IMG/VR virus record: IMGVR_UViG_2548876958_000017
Strand: one strand, 5' to 3'
Origin: a virus
Taxonomy: Duplodnaviria > Heunggongvirae > Uroviricota > Caudoviricetes
Length of the DNA stretch: 8,772 nucleotides
In this document: piece after piece, positions 2,747-7,404 of the stretch
Numbering within the stretch: position 1 is the stretch's first letter
Layout: every line of letters starts with the position of its first letter
Made by a program: the position numbers and the translations under genes
The notes under the pieces: generated by a model
Told to the model about the DNA's origin: nothing
The model's input: the letters and a program-made list of their open reading frames with translations, nothing else
Database searches by the model: none

Positions 2747-3421
2747 ATGAAAACAATCCATGACATCCGGCGGTCTAACGCCAGAAAACTGAGAGATGGT
2801 GTTGGCGGGAATTCTTCCTTTGCCACTATGATTGATCGCGAGCCAACCCAGACCAGCAGGTTTATGGGAGATGGGGCTACTAAAAATATCGGTGACAGCA
2901 TGGCACGACACATCGAAAAATGTTTCGACCTGCCTGTCGGATGGCTCGATCAAGAACACCAGACAACGAACATCACAAAAAAACCTGATGTTTCAATCAC
3001 TAATAAACAAATCACATTAGTCCCTGTCATATCATGGGTACAGGCCGGAGCATGGAAAGAAGTTGGATATTCTGAGGTTGATTTGAGCACAGCAGAAACG
3101 TATCCCTGCCCTGTACCCTGTGGGGAAATGACTTATATCTTGCGGGTGATAGGTGATTCAATGATTGATGAGTACCGCCCGGGAGACATGATTTTTGTCG
3201 ATCCTGAAGTACCTGCCTGCCACGGTGACGACGTTATTGCATTGATGCACGATACAGGCGAAACCACCTTCAAAAGGTTGATAGAAGATGGGACACAGCG
3301 TTATCTTAAAGCGTTAAACCCAAACTGGCCTGAGCCTTACATTAAGATCAACGGTAATTGCTCTATAATTGGTACAGTGATTTTCTCCGGAAAACCAAGA
3401 AGATACAAAATCAAAGCCTAA
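2747..3421 (+). CDS. CI-type prophage repressor with a C-terminal S24 (LexA-like) autopeptidase domain (224 aa)
   Basis: The C-terminal domain closely parallels P22 C2 / lambda CI: ...ISWVQAGAWKE..., catalytic-Ser context VIGDSM, and Lys context TFKRL; compare P22 C2 ISWVSAGQW...QGDSM...TFKKL. The N-terminal ~90 aa are a distinct DNA-binding domain. It is divergent from cro across the operator region. Confidence 0.9.
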   Translation: MKTIHDIRRSNARKLRDGVGGNSSFATMIDREPTQTSRFMGDGATKNIGDSMARHIEKCFDLPVGWLDQEHQTTNITKKPDVSITNKQITLVPVISWVQAGAWKEVGYSEVDLSTAETYPCPVPCGEMTYILRVIGDSMIDEYRPGDMIFVDPEVPACHGDDVIALMHDTGETTFKRLIEDGTQRYLKALNPNWPEPYIKINGNCSIIGTVIFSGKPRRYKIKA

Positions 3422-3433
3422 TCAATGTTTATG

Positions 3434-3456
3434 AACCTGCTTCGGCAGGTTTTTTT
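3434..3456 (+). terminator. Rho-independent terminator after the repressor gene
   Basis: Perfect 7-bp stem AACCTGC / GCAGGTT with TTCG loop, followed by a T run (ttttttt), starting 13 nt after the cI stop. Confidence 0.8.
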
Positions 3457-3460
3457 ATAC

Positions 3461-3493
3461 TTGACAATGTACCTTTGAGATACATAATGTACC
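3461..3493 (+). promoter_or_regulatory. pL-type early-left promoter with OL operator
   Basis: -35 TTGACA (3461..3466), 16-nt spacer, -10 CATAAT (3483..3488). Operator-like palindrome ATGTACCTTTGAGATACAT (3467..3485) lies between -35 and -10, and a second ATGTACC half-site is at 3487..3493. Same half-site as in OR. Confidence 0.65.
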
Positions 3494-3592
3494 CAACCGA
3501 AACAACGAACAGGCAGGACGCCCACGAAGTAGCCGCCGGTGGCGTATGAATGACCGGATGATTCGTTAAATACTATGTGTAAGAGAGCGCAA

Positions 3593-3796
3593 ATGAACCG
3601 TTATTTCACATGCTCGTTTTGTGGCGCAAACGAGCTGCAGGCAAAAAAAATCATCGCCAAAGGCGGAAAAGATGAAATTGCTATCTGCTCTGAGTGCGTA
3701 GTCTTGTGTGTCGGGGCATTAATCAATATCAGCACAACTATTCAGTTCACACCAAATGAGAATGCGCCTTTAGATGCGAGGAAATCTGGAGGTTAA
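3593..3796 (+). CDS. Small free-standing ClpX-type C4 zinc-finger (ZBD-like) protein (67 aa)
   Basis: Start ATG at 3593 is preceded by GAGAG; the upstream ATG at 3575 has no SD. YFTCSFCGANELQAKKIIAKGGKDEIAICSECVVLCVGALI aligns with the E. coli ClpX N-terminal zinc-binding domain [37 protein letters not shown] (CSFCG ... IC.ECV.LC, four Cys). Confidence 0.7.
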   Translation: MNRYFTCSFCGANELQAKKIIAKGGKDEIAICSECVVLCVGALINISTTIQFTPNENAPLDARKSGG

Positions 3797-3885
3797 AGAA
3801 CAAAATGAAAGTCCAGATTTTAAACAATAACTGTGAAGTCGTTTGGGCGTAAAACATGACCGCGCGTAGACCAAGGGAGGAAAAA

Positions 3886-4062
3886 GTGGGAATAGTTAGA
3901 AATCAAGCAGATATATTGAAAATCAGCTCTGAATTGCTTGGAGTTTTGAAAAGTGAGCTCACCGCACATGGCATCGAGCCCACTGACGAAAATTTAAGTT
4001 GGGTTTTGTCGATTATTCAACAATCACTCAAGCCCAGCCTCAGCAAACTTTTTATCGAGTAG
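3886..4062 (+). CDS. Hypothetical small protein (58 aa from GTG; 68 aa if ATG 3856 is used)
   Basis: Strong SD AGGGAGG at 3874..3880, 5 nt before GTG 3886; the ATG at 3856 lacks an SD. The predicted protein is helical-looking with no recognisable motif. Its 3' end overlaps the convergent minus-strand ORF by 39 nt. Confidence 0.45.
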   Translation: MGIVRNQADILKISSELLGVLKSELTAHGIEPTDENLSWVLSIIQQSLKPSLSKLFIE

Positions 4063-4215
4063 TGCTTCGAACTTATCGTAAAGCTTGCTTATGTCGTCTA
4101 TCGGGTTTTCTGACGTACTGTAATTTTTATCTGATGTCATGGCAGCAGTCTGATATGCAGTGTGAGTCTTAACCGATAGTTGGAATAAATAAAGAATTTT
4201 TTCTTCTTTGGTCAT
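4024..4215 (-). CDS. Hypothetical small protein (63 aa), oriented against the pL operon
   Basis: ATG at 4215 with AAGGAAA about 7 nt upstream on the minus strand. A weak candidate promoter lies in 4216..4300 (minus-strand TTCACC-16-TATCTT). The predicted sequence MTKEEKILYLFQLSVKTHTAYQTAAMTSDKNYSTSENPIDDISKLYDKFEALLDKKFAEAGLE has no recognised family. Confidence 0.5.
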   Translation of the reverse strand: MTKEEKILYLFQLSVKTHTAYQTAAMTSDKNYSTSENPIDDISKLYDKFEALLDKKFAEAGLE

Positions 4216-4259
4216 AACTATTTCCTTCTTGGCTATATGAAAACACCAAGATACCACCG

Positions 4260-4729
4260 AGCCTGAAGTGGTGAAAAGACAGGCACATAACAGCTAAGTA
4301 TTTTCAACCAGAGAGAATCCTTAGCGTTGTGGTGAATGCGGCTCAGCGCACGCGGGTTAAGGTTGAGGCTGACAGTCGACCTTCTGTGGATACCCACCCG
4401 CCTGGTGTGCAACCTTCGCCAGGCACCGGGAGGCACCCGGCACCACAACTTTATGCTGTGTGTAGTCTTGGCGGTACCAGCTTGTACCCTTGCTTCCGGC
4501 TGGTACCGTCCTTTTTACAAAACAGAGAAGAGCATCACCGGACGACGGGCTCATAACCCAATCCATCCGGGCGGCTGCCACCGCAGGTGTTCTTCTCTGT
4601 TTTGTGGAGAAACTAACCGCCCCTACGGGGGCATTTATGGAAATGTAATTGACTCAATAATCGCCGGACGGTGAGGGCCTCCTTTTACCCGAATTCAGCG
4701 CGGTGCAGCGCATATACGTGGAGAACAAA
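4260..4729. other. GC-rich, ORF-poor, hairpin-dense non-coding island (candidate structured RNA or DNA site)
   Basis: Only overlapping ORFs rich in Arg/Gly/Pro and rare codons (AGG, CGG, GGG). 41 of 60 bases at 4381..4440 are G or C, against 22 of 60 at 4081..4140. Perfect 15-bp inverted repeat ACAAAACAGAGAAGA (4517..4531) / TCTTCTCTGTTTTGT (4591..4605); perfect 10-bp inverted repeat CGGTACCAGC (4472..4481) / GCTGGTACCG (4499..4508); further hairpins at 4400..4424, 4426..4440 and 4619..4632. Confidence 0.5.
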
Positions 4730-5266
4730 ATGTCATTTATTAAAACTTTTTCCGGGAAGCATTTTTATTATGACAGGATAAATAAAGACGACATCGTTAT
4801 TAACGATATCGCGGTTTCCCTTTCAAATATCTGTCGCTTTGCAGGACATCTTTCACACTTCTACAGTGTCGCCCAACATGCGGTGCTTTGCAGCCAGCTA
4901 GTGCCACAGGAATTTGCTTTTGAAGCTTTAATGCATGATGCAACAGAAGCATATTGCCAGGACATCCCCGCACCACTGAAACGACTTCTTCCTGACTATA
5001 AACGGATGGAAGAAAAAATAGACGCCGTAATCCGTGAGAAATACGGGTTACCTCCTGTTATGAGCACGCCAGTGAAATATGCCGATCTCATTATGCTGGC
5101 AACCGAACGCCGCGATCTCGGGCTTGATGATGGCTCTTTCTGGCCTGTACTGGAAGGTATCCCGGCAACAGAGATGTTCAAAGTGATTCCACAGGCACCG
5201 AGCCATGCCTACGGGATGTTTATGGAACGTTTTAACGAGTTATCGGAGTTACGCAAATGCGCATGA
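4730..5266 (+). CDS. HD-domain phosphohydrolase, YfbR/YfdR-like putative 5'-deoxynucleotidase (178 aa)
   Basis: SD GGAGA 5 nt before ATG 4730. HD-superfamily metal-ligand pattern: H in ...FAGHLSHFYSVAQHAVL..., HD in ...ALMHDATEAYCQDIP..., downstream D in ...YADLIML.... Size and motif order match the small prophage HD hydrolases such as CPS-53 YfdR as I recall them. Confidence 0.8.
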   Translation: MSFIKTFSGKHFYYDRINKDDIVINDIAVSLSNICRFAGHLSHFYSVAQHAVLCSQLVPQEFAFEALMHDATEAYCQDIPAPLKRLLPDYKRMEEKIDAVIREKYGLPPVMSTPVKYADLIMLATERRDLGLDDGSFWPVLEGIPATEMFKVIPQAPSHAYGMFMERFNELSELRKCA

Positions 5267-5924: not shown

Positions 5925-6274
5925 TGGAGCCATACAGCCTCACACTCGATGAGGCCTGTCATTTTCTCAAGATATCCAGACCGACTGCCATTAACTGGAT
6001 ACGCACAGGGCGTCTTCAGGCAACACGCAAAGATCCCACTAAGAATAAATCTCCTTACCTCACAACACGACAAGCCTGCATTGCGGCTCTTCAGTCTCCG
6101 CTGCATACTGTCCAGGTGAGCGCGGGTGATGGCATAACAGAGGAAAGAAAATGTCACTCTTCCGCAGAGGTGAAATATGGTACGCCAGTTTCACATTGCC
6201 GAACGGTAAAAGATTTAAACAGTCTCTTGGAACAAAGGACAAAAGGCAGGCGACAGAACTCCATGACAAGCTAA
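5924..6274 (+). CDS. xis: Excisionase (Xis), P22-type, 116 aa; its 3' end overlaps int by 124 nt
   Basis: ATG 5924 is translationally coupled to the upstream gene, with GAGGTGA as SD. The N-terminal sequence [30 protein letters not shown] is a classic excisionase/AlpA-type HTH. It sits immediately upstream of int. The 116-aa length matches my recollection of P22 Xis. Confidence 0.75.
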
Positions 6275-7314
6275 AGGCTGAAGCATGGCGGGTCAGCAAA
6301 CTTGGTGAAATACCTGATATAACGTTCGAGGAAGCGTGTGTCAGGTGGCTTGAAGAGAAAGCACATAAAAAATCACTGGACGATGACAAAAGCCGGATCG
6401 GATTCTGGCTTCAACATTTCGCAGGAATGCAACTAAGAGACATTACTGAATCAAAAATTTATTCAGCAATGCAGAAAATGACGAACCGGCGTCATGAGGA
6501 AAACTGGAAACTCAGGGCAGAAGCATGCAGAAAAAAAGGGAAACCTGTTCCAGAATACACGCCAAAACCAGCGTCCGTTGCAACGAAGGCTACGCATCTT
6601 TCATTTATAAAGGCCCTACTAAGAGCCGCAGAGCGTGAATGGAAAATGCTGGATAAGGCACCAATTATTAAAGTGCCTCAACCAAAGAATAAACGGATCC
6701 GCTGGCTGGAGCCCCATGAAGCACAAAGGCTGATTGATGAATGTCCGGAGCCATTAAAGTCTGTTGTTGAATTTGCACTGGCAACAGGCTTAAGACGCTC
6801 GAACATCATCAACCTTGAATGGCAACAAATAGATATGCAGCGCCGGGTGGCATGGATAAACCCGGAAGAGAGTAAATCAAACCGCGCAATTGGCGTTGCG
6901 CTGAATGATACTGCATGTCGCGTATTGAAAAAACAAATCGGGAATCATCACCGTTGGGTATTTGTGTACAAGGAAAGCTGTACCAAACCAGACGGAACGA
7001 AAGCGCCAACAGTCAGGAAGATGCGGTATGACGCAAACACAGCCTGGAAAGCGGCGCTGAGACGGGCTGGTATTGATGATTTCAGATTTCACGACTTGAG
7101 ACACACCTGGGCAAGTTGGCTGGTTCAAGCCGGAGTCCCGTTGTCAGTGTTACAGGAAATGGGAGGCTGGGAGTCTATCGAAATGGTTCGTCGATATGCT
7201 CACCTTGCACCTAATCACCTTACCGAACACGCACGGCAAATAGACTCGATCCTGAACCCATCGGTCCCAAATTTGTCCCAGTCAAAAAATAAGGAAGATA
7301 CTAATGATGTGTAA
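6151..7314 (+). CDS. int: Tyrosine site-specific integrase, P22-like (387 aa)
   Basis: SD GAGGAAAG before ATG 6151. The N-terminus [46 protein letters not shown] is nearly identical to P22 Int as I recall it. C-terminal catalytic region has R...HDLRHT...RY ([39 protein letters not shown]). It ends 15 bp from the tRNA 3' end. Confidence 0.95.
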
Positions 7315-7328
7315 CTTATTGATTTAAA

Positions 7329-7404
7329 TGGTGCCGATAATAGGAGTCGAACCTACGACCTTCGCATTACGAATGCGCTGCTCTACCAACTGAGCTATAT
7401 CGGC
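7329..7404 (-). tRNA. thrW: tRNA-Thr (anticodon CGU), with encoded CCA
   Basis: The reverse complement reads GCCGATATAGCTCAGTTGGTAGAGCAGCGCATTCGTAATGCGAAGGTCGTAGGTTCGACTCCTATTATCGGCACCA. It has canonical D-loop (AGCTCAGTTGGTAGAGC), anticodon loop (CATTCGTAATG) and T-loop (GGTTCGACTCC), and a 7-bp acceptor stem (GCCGATA / TATCGGC). Confidence 0.97.

Follow-up and report, generated by a model that had tools for sequence, protein, structure and literature searches.

A mobile, structured RNA module related to STnc100 and PasD in the early-left operon of an SfII-type prophage

The viral record IMGVR_UViG_2548876958_000017 (IMG/VR; 8,772 nucleotides [nt], henceforth the window) contains a G+C-rich island, at positions 4260 to 4729, directly upstream of a yfdR-like HD/5'-deoxynucleotidase gene. 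Here, we report that this island is a plus-strand non-coding RNA locus, neither a gene remnant nor a DNA site. A preliminary description, made from the sequence alone, had treated it as a single hairpin-dense element. Its RNA nature is retained, but the island consists of two tandem RNA units, the second without a core, followed by a separate yfdR leader. We place unit 1, as a divergent representative, in the STnc100/PasD superfamily of prophage small RNAs (sRNAs); it is structured, ends in an intrinsic terminator and belongs to a module that moves between temperate enterobacterial phages as a block. On balance, and by analogy with its relatives, we consider it probable that unit 1 acts as an early base-pairing sRNA, driven from the early-left promoter (pL) and ended by its own terminator.

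Homology and structure of unit 1

The preliminary description could match the island to no known RNA family, a statement now superseded by an Rfam scan and a test carried out in both directions. The STnc100 model (RF02076) gives the one relevant match of the scan, on the plus strand at 4296-4519 with 43.4 bits (E = 5.9e-7; gathering score, 47 bits) over model positions 1-206 of 206, and its terminator aligns to 4470-4516. For the reverse direction, a covariance model (R1) was built from 23 relatives of the window element only. Its score for the window itself is 130 bits; in HK639 it detects a copy of STnc100 type within the late leader (38.3 bits, E = 3.3e-7; UGUGGUGAAUCC...CACCGGGAGGCACCCGGCACCA, linker, terminator), and it also picks up the type II copies described below (E = 3e-5 to 8e-3). 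As the STnc100 model matches the window and R1 matches an STnc100-type copy, homology holds both ways. The same element gives sub-threshold STnc100 matches of 29-41 bits in e14, ST64B, phiES15 and phage P1. With respect to location, the element resembles STnc100 in lying in a prophage, here at thrW, and in having an intrinsic terminator at its 3' end (4470-4516), while the genomic region differs.

PasD1 of enteropathogenic Escherichia coli (EPEC) served as a benchmark. This northern-validated, Hfq-associated sRNA was mapped by RIL-seq (NC_011601, 1060260-1060432; PMC8550237) and was related to STnc100 in a 2026 preprint (10.64898/2026.05.13.724894). Its score against the Rfam STnc100 model, 37.7 bits, is lower than the 43.4 bits of the window. 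The published PasD1 seed, UGUGAG (PMC8550237), lies in the linker directly 5' of the terminator, matching the position of the linker in the window. Direct similarity to PasD1 and PasD2 is confined to short shared blocks in a global alignment, and R1 gives no match at E ≤ 1 at the PasD1 locus; the link between the window and PasD runs solely via the STnc100 model.

All features listed in the preliminary description were found at the positions given there. G+C counts are 41/60 at 4381-4440 and 22/60 at 4081-4140; the 200-nt profile reaches a plateau of 0.58 over 4301-4600, against 0.38-0.41 in the left and 0.42-0.43 in the right flank. The 15-bp inverted repeat (4517-4531/4591-4605) has no mismatch and can be lengthened to arms of 25 nt (4517-4541/4581-4605), which are 84% complementary. 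The 10-bp repeat (4472-4481/4499-4508), part of the unit 1 terminator stem, is likewise free of mismatches. The supposed tandem 10-mers AGGCACCGGG/AGGCACCCGG are present at 4421-4440, but are better taken as a hairpin, CCGGG-AGGCA-CCCGG (4426-4440; P5 below). Folding of the RNA is more stable than expected by chance for both 4296-4519 (z = -2.84; 3 of 200 shuffles as stable) and 4510-4735 (z = -4.04; 0 of 200). The idea of a structured non-coding RNA is supported and, among the options originally offered, an sRNA is the best fit.

The core of unit 1 is a five-way junction. Seven sequence classes with unrelated P3 and P4 hairpins (the window, ST64B, phiES15, phage P1 and three viral contigs) reached this architecture independently when folded individually. 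An RNAalifold consensus over these classes recovered stems P1, P2 and P5, with two compensatory pairs in the closing stem P1: U-A is replaced by C-G in the phage P1 group and G-C by A-U in phiES15. Invariant over all seven are a 5' segment, GGUGAAUGCGGCUMAGCGCACGCGG, and a 3' segment, ACCGGGAGGCACCCGGCACC. Kissing of the P2 and P5 loops in this type of core was considered and is not claimed: the complementarity spans 3 nt and its co-variation, judged by eye, is thin (U/G, U/A, C/G).

Downstream of the core, the linker sequence UGCUGUGUGUAGUCUU is conserved in lineages with differing terminator stems (SfII, e14, ST64B, phiES15 and some type II units). ST64B and phiES15 have other terminator-stem sequences, yet keep a hairpin and U-run in place. 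Upstream, pairing of ACAAC with GUUGU at the core start is retained in 97% of cells (helix 1 of the S0 alignment described below) with two covarying pairs, and the phage P1 variant of this helix, GUAAC/GUUGC, covaries. It may be a functional alternative to the closing stem or a mere consequence of repeated unit ends.

Unit 2, the S0 module and the wider family

Most cores of the family are preceded by a module, S0, of the form (C)ACAAC-AGGUAAGAGCAUU, a variable stretch of 40-110 nt, and AGUGCUCUUUCC-GUUGUGGUG. Unit 2 of the island aligns with it, the two strands of its helix being ACAAAACAGAGAAGAGCAUC and GGUGUUCUUCUCUGUUUUGU. The unit lacks the remainder of the core, and the same truncated form occurs in mEp460, e14 and ST64B. 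To assess covariation, module ends were cut from a purely sequence-based alignment of 52 sequences. Pairing in the S0 helix amounts to 90.5%, and both partners are altered in 12 of 13 pairs; another tally for S0 gives 92.7% pairing, with changes on either side in 14 of 19 pairs. The values observed for the structure as a whole were reached by 0 of 500 shuffles, and controls in which the strands were slid gave 35-62% pairing. In the e14 and ST64B homologues the unit 2 helix, both inner hairpins and the hairpin at 4619-4632 are maintained by compensatory changes; the 15-bp repeat of the preliminary description is part of a 25-bp helix that covaries strongly among homologues. The position of the 4619-4632 hairpin is also retained by mEp460, e14 and ST64B despite different sequences. 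The 3' strand of S0 resembles a boxA/Nus site of rrn operons in many copies (UGCUCUUU), but this candidate was rejected, as the strand covaries as a helix and diverges freely.

One S0 pair is U-G in 35 of the 52 sequences. Such pairs are valid on one strand only and, together with the position of the U-run, they identify the RNA strand as plus. They also bear on the proposal that the island is a DNA-level element, such as a recombination hot spot or mosaic joint, a partition site or a secondary origin, which we regard as very unlikely: the compensatory changes include frequent U-G pairs, which work only in a plus-strand RNA, the U-run is one-sided, orientation always agrees with the surrounding operon and nearby tRNA genes, and phage origin iterons are found elsewhere (1144-1218). 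What speaks for a role in DNA is that the module boundaries coincide with the conserved ends and that some copies are truncated or carry inserted open reading frames (ORFs); these ends therefore do serve as recombination joints between phages. Integron attC-like core sites did not fit the island by eye (GTTRRRY/RYYYAAC).

Within unit 2 sits an exact copy of 14 nt of the E. coli initiator tRNA-fMet. The 14-mer, identical at 14 of 14 nt, covers three G:C pairs and the CUCAUAA loop with its CAU anticodon. The tRNA sequence used for the comparison, a 77-nt query, is 100% identical to tRNA-Met as annotated in each of the 5426 complete E. coli genomes. It is unique within the window and was matched in 0 of 200 shuffles. 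A generalized motif, GGGNYCAUAWCCCAAUC, occurs within covarying stems in 51 of 129 fetched loci, and other S0 inserts contain T-arm-like GGUUCGAnUCC hairpins. The fMet resemblance was noticed post hoc and comprises the tip of the arm only. ARAGORN calls a single tRNA in the window, thrW, and none at the island; no ARAGORN tRNA listed near family cores in the fetched loci begins inside a unit.

The module recurs as a block in SfII, SfV, SfIV, e14 and many other prophages, and the island is 98.8% identical to Shigella phage SfII. At least part of a 561-nt query (window 4200-4760) is held by 3023 of the 5426 complete E. coli genomes. Gene content varies between phages to the left of one shared boundary, while the right boundary lies at about 4619-4630, beyond which the sequence travels with yfdR. 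Nine distinct full-length copies were present among the close homologues, too few for per-position variability. A degenerate 17-mer pattern searched in genome contigs gave chance matches in unrelated phyla in 119 of 120 cases; taxonomic breadth is therefore taken from phage BLAST only.

This modularity also argues against a leader or riboswitch dedicated to the HD gene (PHROG 318), an option raised in the preliminary description and favoured by the position of the structured island directly 5' of that gene. The same module precedes xisE in e14, sb37 in ST64B, kil in phiES15 and tciA in phage P1, and is likewise followed by an unrelated gene in mEp460. In CPS-53-type prophages, query positions 420-561 occur alone with yfdR, which in such other prophages keeps just the last ~110 nt (4619-4760). 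Moreover, an intrinsic terminator and a second unit intervene between the core and the HD gene, and no riboswitch was matched in the Rfam scan of the window. The genomic contexts largely refute this explanation, and we give it hardly any credence.

A protein gene, intact or decayed, is just as hard to credit. The statement that the island holds no credible ORF needs qualification, as open stretches of 93, 112, 98 and 85 codons exist and one of them, the 112-codon ATG ORF at 4336-4674, is annotated as SfII_35 (GenBank, RefSeq); its homologue in e14 of K-12 is YmfH (ymfH), and related ORFs are annotated in many records. The original judgement that none is credible is supported, however. Open stretches of at least 85 codons occur in four of the six frames of the G+C-rich segment anyway. 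A conserved frame was looked for in e14 and ST64B and was not found, indels shifting the frame: in e14 a 1-nt deletion makes YmfH a fusion of two window frames, and in ST64B, with indels of 1, 1 and 20 nt, a third frame is open. The 4336-4674 ORF is without a PHROG match, unlike each of the seven neighbouring ORFs tested, and it crosses the terminator and two independently moving modules. As no reading frame is conserved, SfII_35 and YmfH are, judging from sequence comparison, probably not proteins. The e14 copy itself (L002 3100-3411, K-12/W3110, ymfH) is partly decayed, with mutations in P5 and in the tRNA-like loop.

Searching viral contigs for GTTGYGGTGAATGCG revealed more than 120 loci, about 52 of type I (that of the window) and about 55 of type II (as in mEp460). 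Type II units share the closing stem, but have GCGCAGGCUGAUGCGC as P2 and GCCGGAGAUCAGCACCGGC as 3' hairpin around an interior of 30-150 nt without sequence conservation. Their scaffold is 92% paired and gives no covariation signal, as it is nearly invariant, in part because its 5' strand was fixed by the search pattern. Most unique family copies examined have a hairpin and U-run terminator 30-100 nt 3' of the core. In some (L013, L089/L101, L096), a σ70 promoter with -35 and -10 elements is placed so that the transcript starts at stem P1, as in PasD1. In mEp460 and L089 this promoter is the one beside the repressor gene; there, the RNA is therefore the first product of the early-left operon. 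Phage P1 carries two units within its C1-controlled ban operon, where they are flanked by tRNA-Thr and tciA. Across the family, phage tRNA genes occur at a distance of no more than 1.2 kb from 19 of 136 cores, in every case on the strand of the core. What unites the family is a conserved scaffold; the inserts are hypervariable, and phage tRNA genes are often found next to its members.

Several individual copies deserve mention. The two S0-plus-core units of phage P1 (AF234172, ~69.7-70.2 kb; L003 ~2130-2630) lie on the ban-operon strand beneath the opposite-strand ORFs plp and upl, the reality of which may merit a second look. The HK639 late leader, from Q to the holin gene (L129 44300-45170), comprises a terminator, two tRNA genes, an STnc100-type unit (44809-44927) and three more annotated terminators, and is the late-operon counterpart of the pL arrangement. 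In L051 and L120 a type II core ends after ~85 nt and is joined to GGAGGTTAAAGAACAAAATGAAAGTCCAG..., a sequence found between the small genes of the window (3781-3890); this directly shows that the RNA genes serve as recombination joints. In the IMG/VR contig L032, an ORF beginning MGIVYKLTFSNGKSYIG..., with the look of a GIY-YIG homing endonuclease, follows right after P2, ~25 nt into a type II core, which suggests, as far as the sequence goes, insertion of an endonuclease gene into a conserved RNA gene. A hammerhead-like CUGAUG...GAAA in the mEp460 type II copy was discarded, since by eye the GAAA is not conserved in other copies. Finally, adjacent C4 antisense and IsrK RNAs, both above their Rfam thresholds, were found at L004 409-597 (ST64B), L006 414-602 (Stx2c phage) and L007 324-512 (mEp460); this pair, near an antirepressor (Rha) gene, looks like an RNA immunity module of the P1 immI type.

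Features of the island and its surroundings (positions in the window; MFE, minimum free energy)
Feature	Position	Strand	Basis or remark
Mobile non-coding RNA module, entire	4250-4630	+	BLAST query positions 51-431 recur as a block
Unit 1 structured RNA (5' hairpin, core, linker, terminator)	4250-4516	+	
Upstream hairpin, GCCUG...CAGGC	4261-4284	+	hairpin and (C)ACAAC precede units across the family
ACAUAAC	4285-4291	+	can pair with GUUGUG at core start
Short 5' stem-loop, S0-type helix, GCUAAG.../...CUUAGC	4292-4325	+	MFE fold; positionally homologous to the S0 helix
Five-way-junction core	4326-4449	+	Rfam STnc100 match, folds, RNAalifold
Closing stem P1, GUUGUGGUG / CACCACAAC	4326-4334 / 4441-4449	+	
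P2, small hairpin, after AAU	4338-4353	+	
Variable hairpins	4359-4397	+	
P4 hairpin	4400-4424	+	
P5 hairpin	4426-4440	+	strands and loop first taken for tandem 10-mers
Single-stranded linker, UUUAUGCUGUGUGUAGUCUU	4450-4469	+	20 nt; candidate seed for base pairing
Intrinsic terminator of unit 1	stem 4470-4482/4498-4510 (13 bp); UUUUU 4512-4516	+	folds, STnc100 model alignment
Unit 2 folded region with small right-end hairpin	4517-4632	+	
Unit 2 proper, S0-type module	4517-4605	+	inverted repeat; fold z = -4.04; arms align with S0 consensus
Unit 2 closing helix, 25 bp (contains the 15-bp repeat)	4517-4541/4581-4605	+	encloses a three-way junction
Unit 2 hairpin a	4538-4570	+	
Unit 2 hairpin b	4571-4584	+	
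tRNA-fMet-like 14-mer, CGGGCUCAUAACCC	4546-4559	+	exact copy of nt 28-41 of E. coli initiator tRNA-fMet
GUUUUGUGGAGAAAC, degenerate counterpart of core start GUUGUGGUGAAUGC	4599-4613	+	sequence-anchored alignment of unit ends
Small G+C hairpin, GCCCC-UACG-GGGGC, module right end	4619-4632	+	fold; terminator-like on minus strand in scan
yfdR-like HD/5'-deoxynucleotidase leader, separate module	4634-4729	+	Shine-Dalgarno GGAG 4720-4723, ATG 4730
cI, LexA-like	2747-3421		PHROG and SfII annotation
cI terminator	3433-3452		
Predicted early-left promoter (pL), TTGACA-16-CATAAT	3461-3488	+	reads towards int; promoter/terminator scan 3400-4800
Integrase	6151-7314		
tRNA-Thr(CGU), thrW	7329-7404		ARAGORN

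A model for expression and its competitors

The analysis establishes that the locus is non-coding, on which strand it is encoded, how it folds and to what it is homologous, that it has a terminator and that it is mobile; we infer expression from pL, a discrete RNA and its ends, dependence on Hfq, a seed and targets. Upon loss of repressor, transcription from pL would cross the module, and termination at 4512-4516 would release a discrete RNA of ~190-225 nt, the 5' end of which (about 4292 or 4326) would arise by processing or at an unrecognized start. The body of this RNA would be the stable junction, followed by a free linker and a tail of hairpin and U residues. A tail of this type is the 3' end to which Hfq usually binds. 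The linker GCUGUGUGUAGUCUU would, by analogy with PasD1/PasD2 and STnc100, base-pair in trans with host or phage mRNAs, probably with the aid of Hfq. Polymerases reading through would yield a yfdR-xis-int mRNA with unit 2 in its 5' part, where unit 2 would most simply serve as a processing or stability element. The genomic setting, with a pL-like promoter upstream and co-oriented genes, is consistent with this model.

A number of observations weigh against the model. The STnc100 score of the window stays below the curated threshold (43.4 versus 47 bits). In the scan of 3400-4800, no promoter was found within 800 nt 5' of the core, so that the discrete 5' end is a prediction. The scaffold helices P2 and P5 are nearly invariant, conserved without covariation, and a five-way junction of this kind is far more elaborate than the seed-plus-terminator layout of a typical Hfq sRNA, which hints at a protein or tertiary partner. 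Furthermore, the unit 1 terminator precedes xis, int and other early-left genes, which calls for a readthrough mechanism. The base-pairing model does not account for the invariance of P2 and P5, the tRNA-like inserts or the passage of the terminator in phages without N, and because of these gaps three competing explanations stay alive: a cis-acting antiterminator or attenuator, a tRNA-mimicking decoy and a role in RNase III processing.

Control of transcription in cis, in which the core would modify RNA polymerase (processive antitermination like HK022 put or Bacillus EAR) or govern the next terminator, would let early-left genes be expressed in phages without N. Units head long operons and are followed by intrinsic terminators after pL in mEp460 and L089/L101, in the ban operon of phage P1 and in the HK639 late leader; no N-like protein is encoded between pL and the module in the window; and GUUGUGGUG can pair with either the upstream ACAAC or the downstream CACCACAAC, a possible switch. 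We nevertheless hold this to be rather unlikely. In sequence, the element resembles neither HK022 put nor the annotated HK639 putL-like RNA, late-region copies lie behind Q, which already supplies antitermination, and no alternative pairing with the terminator arm was found. Besides, the PasD1-type relatives are stand-alone genes with promoter and terminator of their own that yield stable, Hfq-associated RNAs. Membership of the put type was rejected, as the family motif is absent from HK022 19-31 kb and the HK639 putL-like sequence is unrelated.

A decoy RNA, serving anti-defence or the hijacking of translation, would display tRNA parts on the scaffold and titrate a tRNA-directed host factor. 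The VapC/MvpT toxins of Shigella and Salmonella, for example, reportedly cut initiator tRNA in the anticodon arm. The uniqueness of the fMet 14-mer agrees with such a role, as do the retention of GGG/CCC and CAU in 51 of the 129 loci while the surrounding closing stems covary, the T-arm-like hairpins of other inserts, the same-strand phage tRNA genes near 19 of the 136 cores, and the hypervariability of the inserts, as an arms race would predict. On the other hand, the likeness is limited to three G:C pairs and a loop, the rest of the arm and the flanks (AC...AAUC) being unlike, and it was spotted after the fact; some variants have a C at position 33, CAU is no longer present in the e14 copy, ARAGORN calls no tRNA at the island, and the data analysed contain no link to any defence system. 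We therefore give the decoy only a small chance. About as improbable is a role of unit 2 and the long S0 helices in RNase III processing or in stability, by which they would part the sRNA from the mRNA and tune yfdR-xis-int, comparable to lambda sib, the N-leader site or the excision of DicF from the dicB operon RNA. This role would be compatible with a base-pairing unit 1. It would suit a helix that is near-perfect over 25 bp (perfect over 15), whose length and pairing are upheld by compensatory changes and which lies between the terminator and the next gene in an operon ending with xis and int; a simple cleavage site, however, fails to explain the conserved internal loop and the enclosed tRNA-like hairpin.

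A bolder proposal, which we judge unlikely, is that the units are modular tRNA-shaped phage RNAs acting as decoys or baits for tRNA-directed host factors or, alternatively, a new class of cis-acting antiterminators for lambdoid phages without N. In the tRNA-shaped variant, the closing stem may correspond to an acceptor, P2 to a D arm and P5 to a T arm with complementary loops, with the long S0 helices as scaffold; the parts displayed may be the anticodon stem-loop of initiator tRNA in the window and T-arm-like hairpins elsewhere. RNAs made from early promoters may then bait VapC/MvpT-type toxins or the 30S P site, and the inserts may reflect an arms race.

Returning to the proposed base-pairing sRNA and the family to which it belongs, their significance lies in part in annotation. 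The module is currently labelled a hypothetical protein, including ymfH of K-12 e14, so that its recognition as RNA would correct a widespread error. A search of the literature on the element, ymfH and tRNA mimics, with most subscription journals outside its reach, found no earlier description of the element as an RNA. A ymfH expression clone was reported to trigger the retron-Sen2 toxin RcaT (bioRxiv 10.1101/2020.06.22.160242); RNA rather than protein could be the active agent of that clone. If so, earlier ymfH phenotypes such as this triggering need re-reading. The tRNA-like inserts could be a sign of RNA-based counter-defence. STnc100/PasD, moreover, would turn from a small late-region sRNA family into a much larger modular one, which also holds the first transcribed positions of lambdoid early operons as well as the ban operon of phage P1. 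Identified along with it are a putative seed, a terminator at the operon head in phages that lack N, and the conserved copy of an anticodon arm from initiator tRNA. Modular scaffold, covarying S0 helix, initiator-tRNA arm, operon-head position and misannotation as protein in most E. coli genomes take the element beyond a routine sRNA homologue.

Prophage context and comparison with known systems

The window represents the left arm of a lambdoid prophage of the SfII/SfV type with thrW as integration site. The order of cI, its terminator, a promoter reading towards int, int-directed genes, the integrase gene and thrW places the island inside the leftward early operon, as the preliminary description had proposed. 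The predicted pL is the sole σ70-like promoter detected 5' of the module in the scanned region. Between it and the island lie genes for a 73-amino-acid (aa) zinc-ribbon-like and a 68-aa protein and, on the opposite strand, a 63-aa gene; no N-like antiterminator was found among these proteins by PHROG comparison. The 73-aa product (3575-3796, the first gene after pL) has two CxxC pairs with the look of a ClpX-type zinc ribbon, belongs to phrog_5259 and gives a weak match to a 'protease' family. The 63-aa gene (4024-4215, minus strand; phrog_2605) opposes the operon and adjoins the module boundary near 4250 on the left. Other phages carry a different opposite-strand gene exactly there, which makes the boundary a recurrent insertion point for small 'moron' genes. 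Elsewhere in the window, about five tandem 15-nt iterons (CAGATTTTGACGGGT; 1144-1218) within an O-like replication gene (minus strand, 575-1516) form a lambda-style origin; they account for a spurious Rfam match to mir-5880 at 1141-1215.

Among known systems, HK022 put and the HK639 putL-like RNA resemble the island in position, all being folded RNAs encoded close to where the early-left transcript begins in lambdoid phages that lack N. HK022 put, however, consists of two stem-loops of ~70 nt without a terminator of its own, whereas unit 1 has one. DicF, from the lambdoid prophage Qin, is likewise an sRNA located in an early operon under repressor control and freed by processing and termination, but it measures 53 nt and lacks the junction domain of unit 1. 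At E ≤ 1 the DicF model (RF00039) has no match anywhere in the window; the terminator region of the e14 copy is matched weakly (28.5 bits, E = 0.015). Stable tRNA-like RNAs are also known from phage tRNA clusters (T4 species 1 and 2 RNAs), and the C4 RNA of P1/P7 is processed by RNase P; some family members similarly lie in same-strand phage tRNA arrays, those of phage P1 between tRNA-Thr and tRNA-Ile. As to initiator tRNA-fMet itself, unit 2 has no homology to its D arm, T arm or acceptor, and the shared 14-mer sits in a long helix with a conserved internal loop.

The closest relatives are STnc100 and PasD. STnc100, a prophage sRNA of gammaproteobacteria, and unit 1 have in common UGGUGAAU in the closing stem, a junction of several hairpins and a P5 segment that is identical in both (CACCGGGAGGCACCCGGCACCA); in each, a linker and then an intrinsic terminator follow. 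The P2 of STnc100 is CCCCCUGUGCGGAGGGG as opposed to GCGGCUCAGCGCAC in the window. The published STnc100 copies lie in the late region, downstream of Q and stx (PMC12370729; 10.64898/2026.05.13.724894), in contrast to the early-left copy of the window with its extra 5' module. Of the Hfq-associated sRNAs PasD1 and PasD2 (EcOnc13; EPEC and enterohaemorrhagic E. coli), PasD1 begins at the P1 strand and likewise contains UGGUGAAU and GGGAGGC(G)CC; its terminator is preceded by a single-stranded stretch, and its 3' end is rich in U. The PasD RNAs differ from unit 1 in having their own promoter, no proper P5 and a late-region location, and the PasD1 seed UGUGAG stands where the window has GUGUGUAG.

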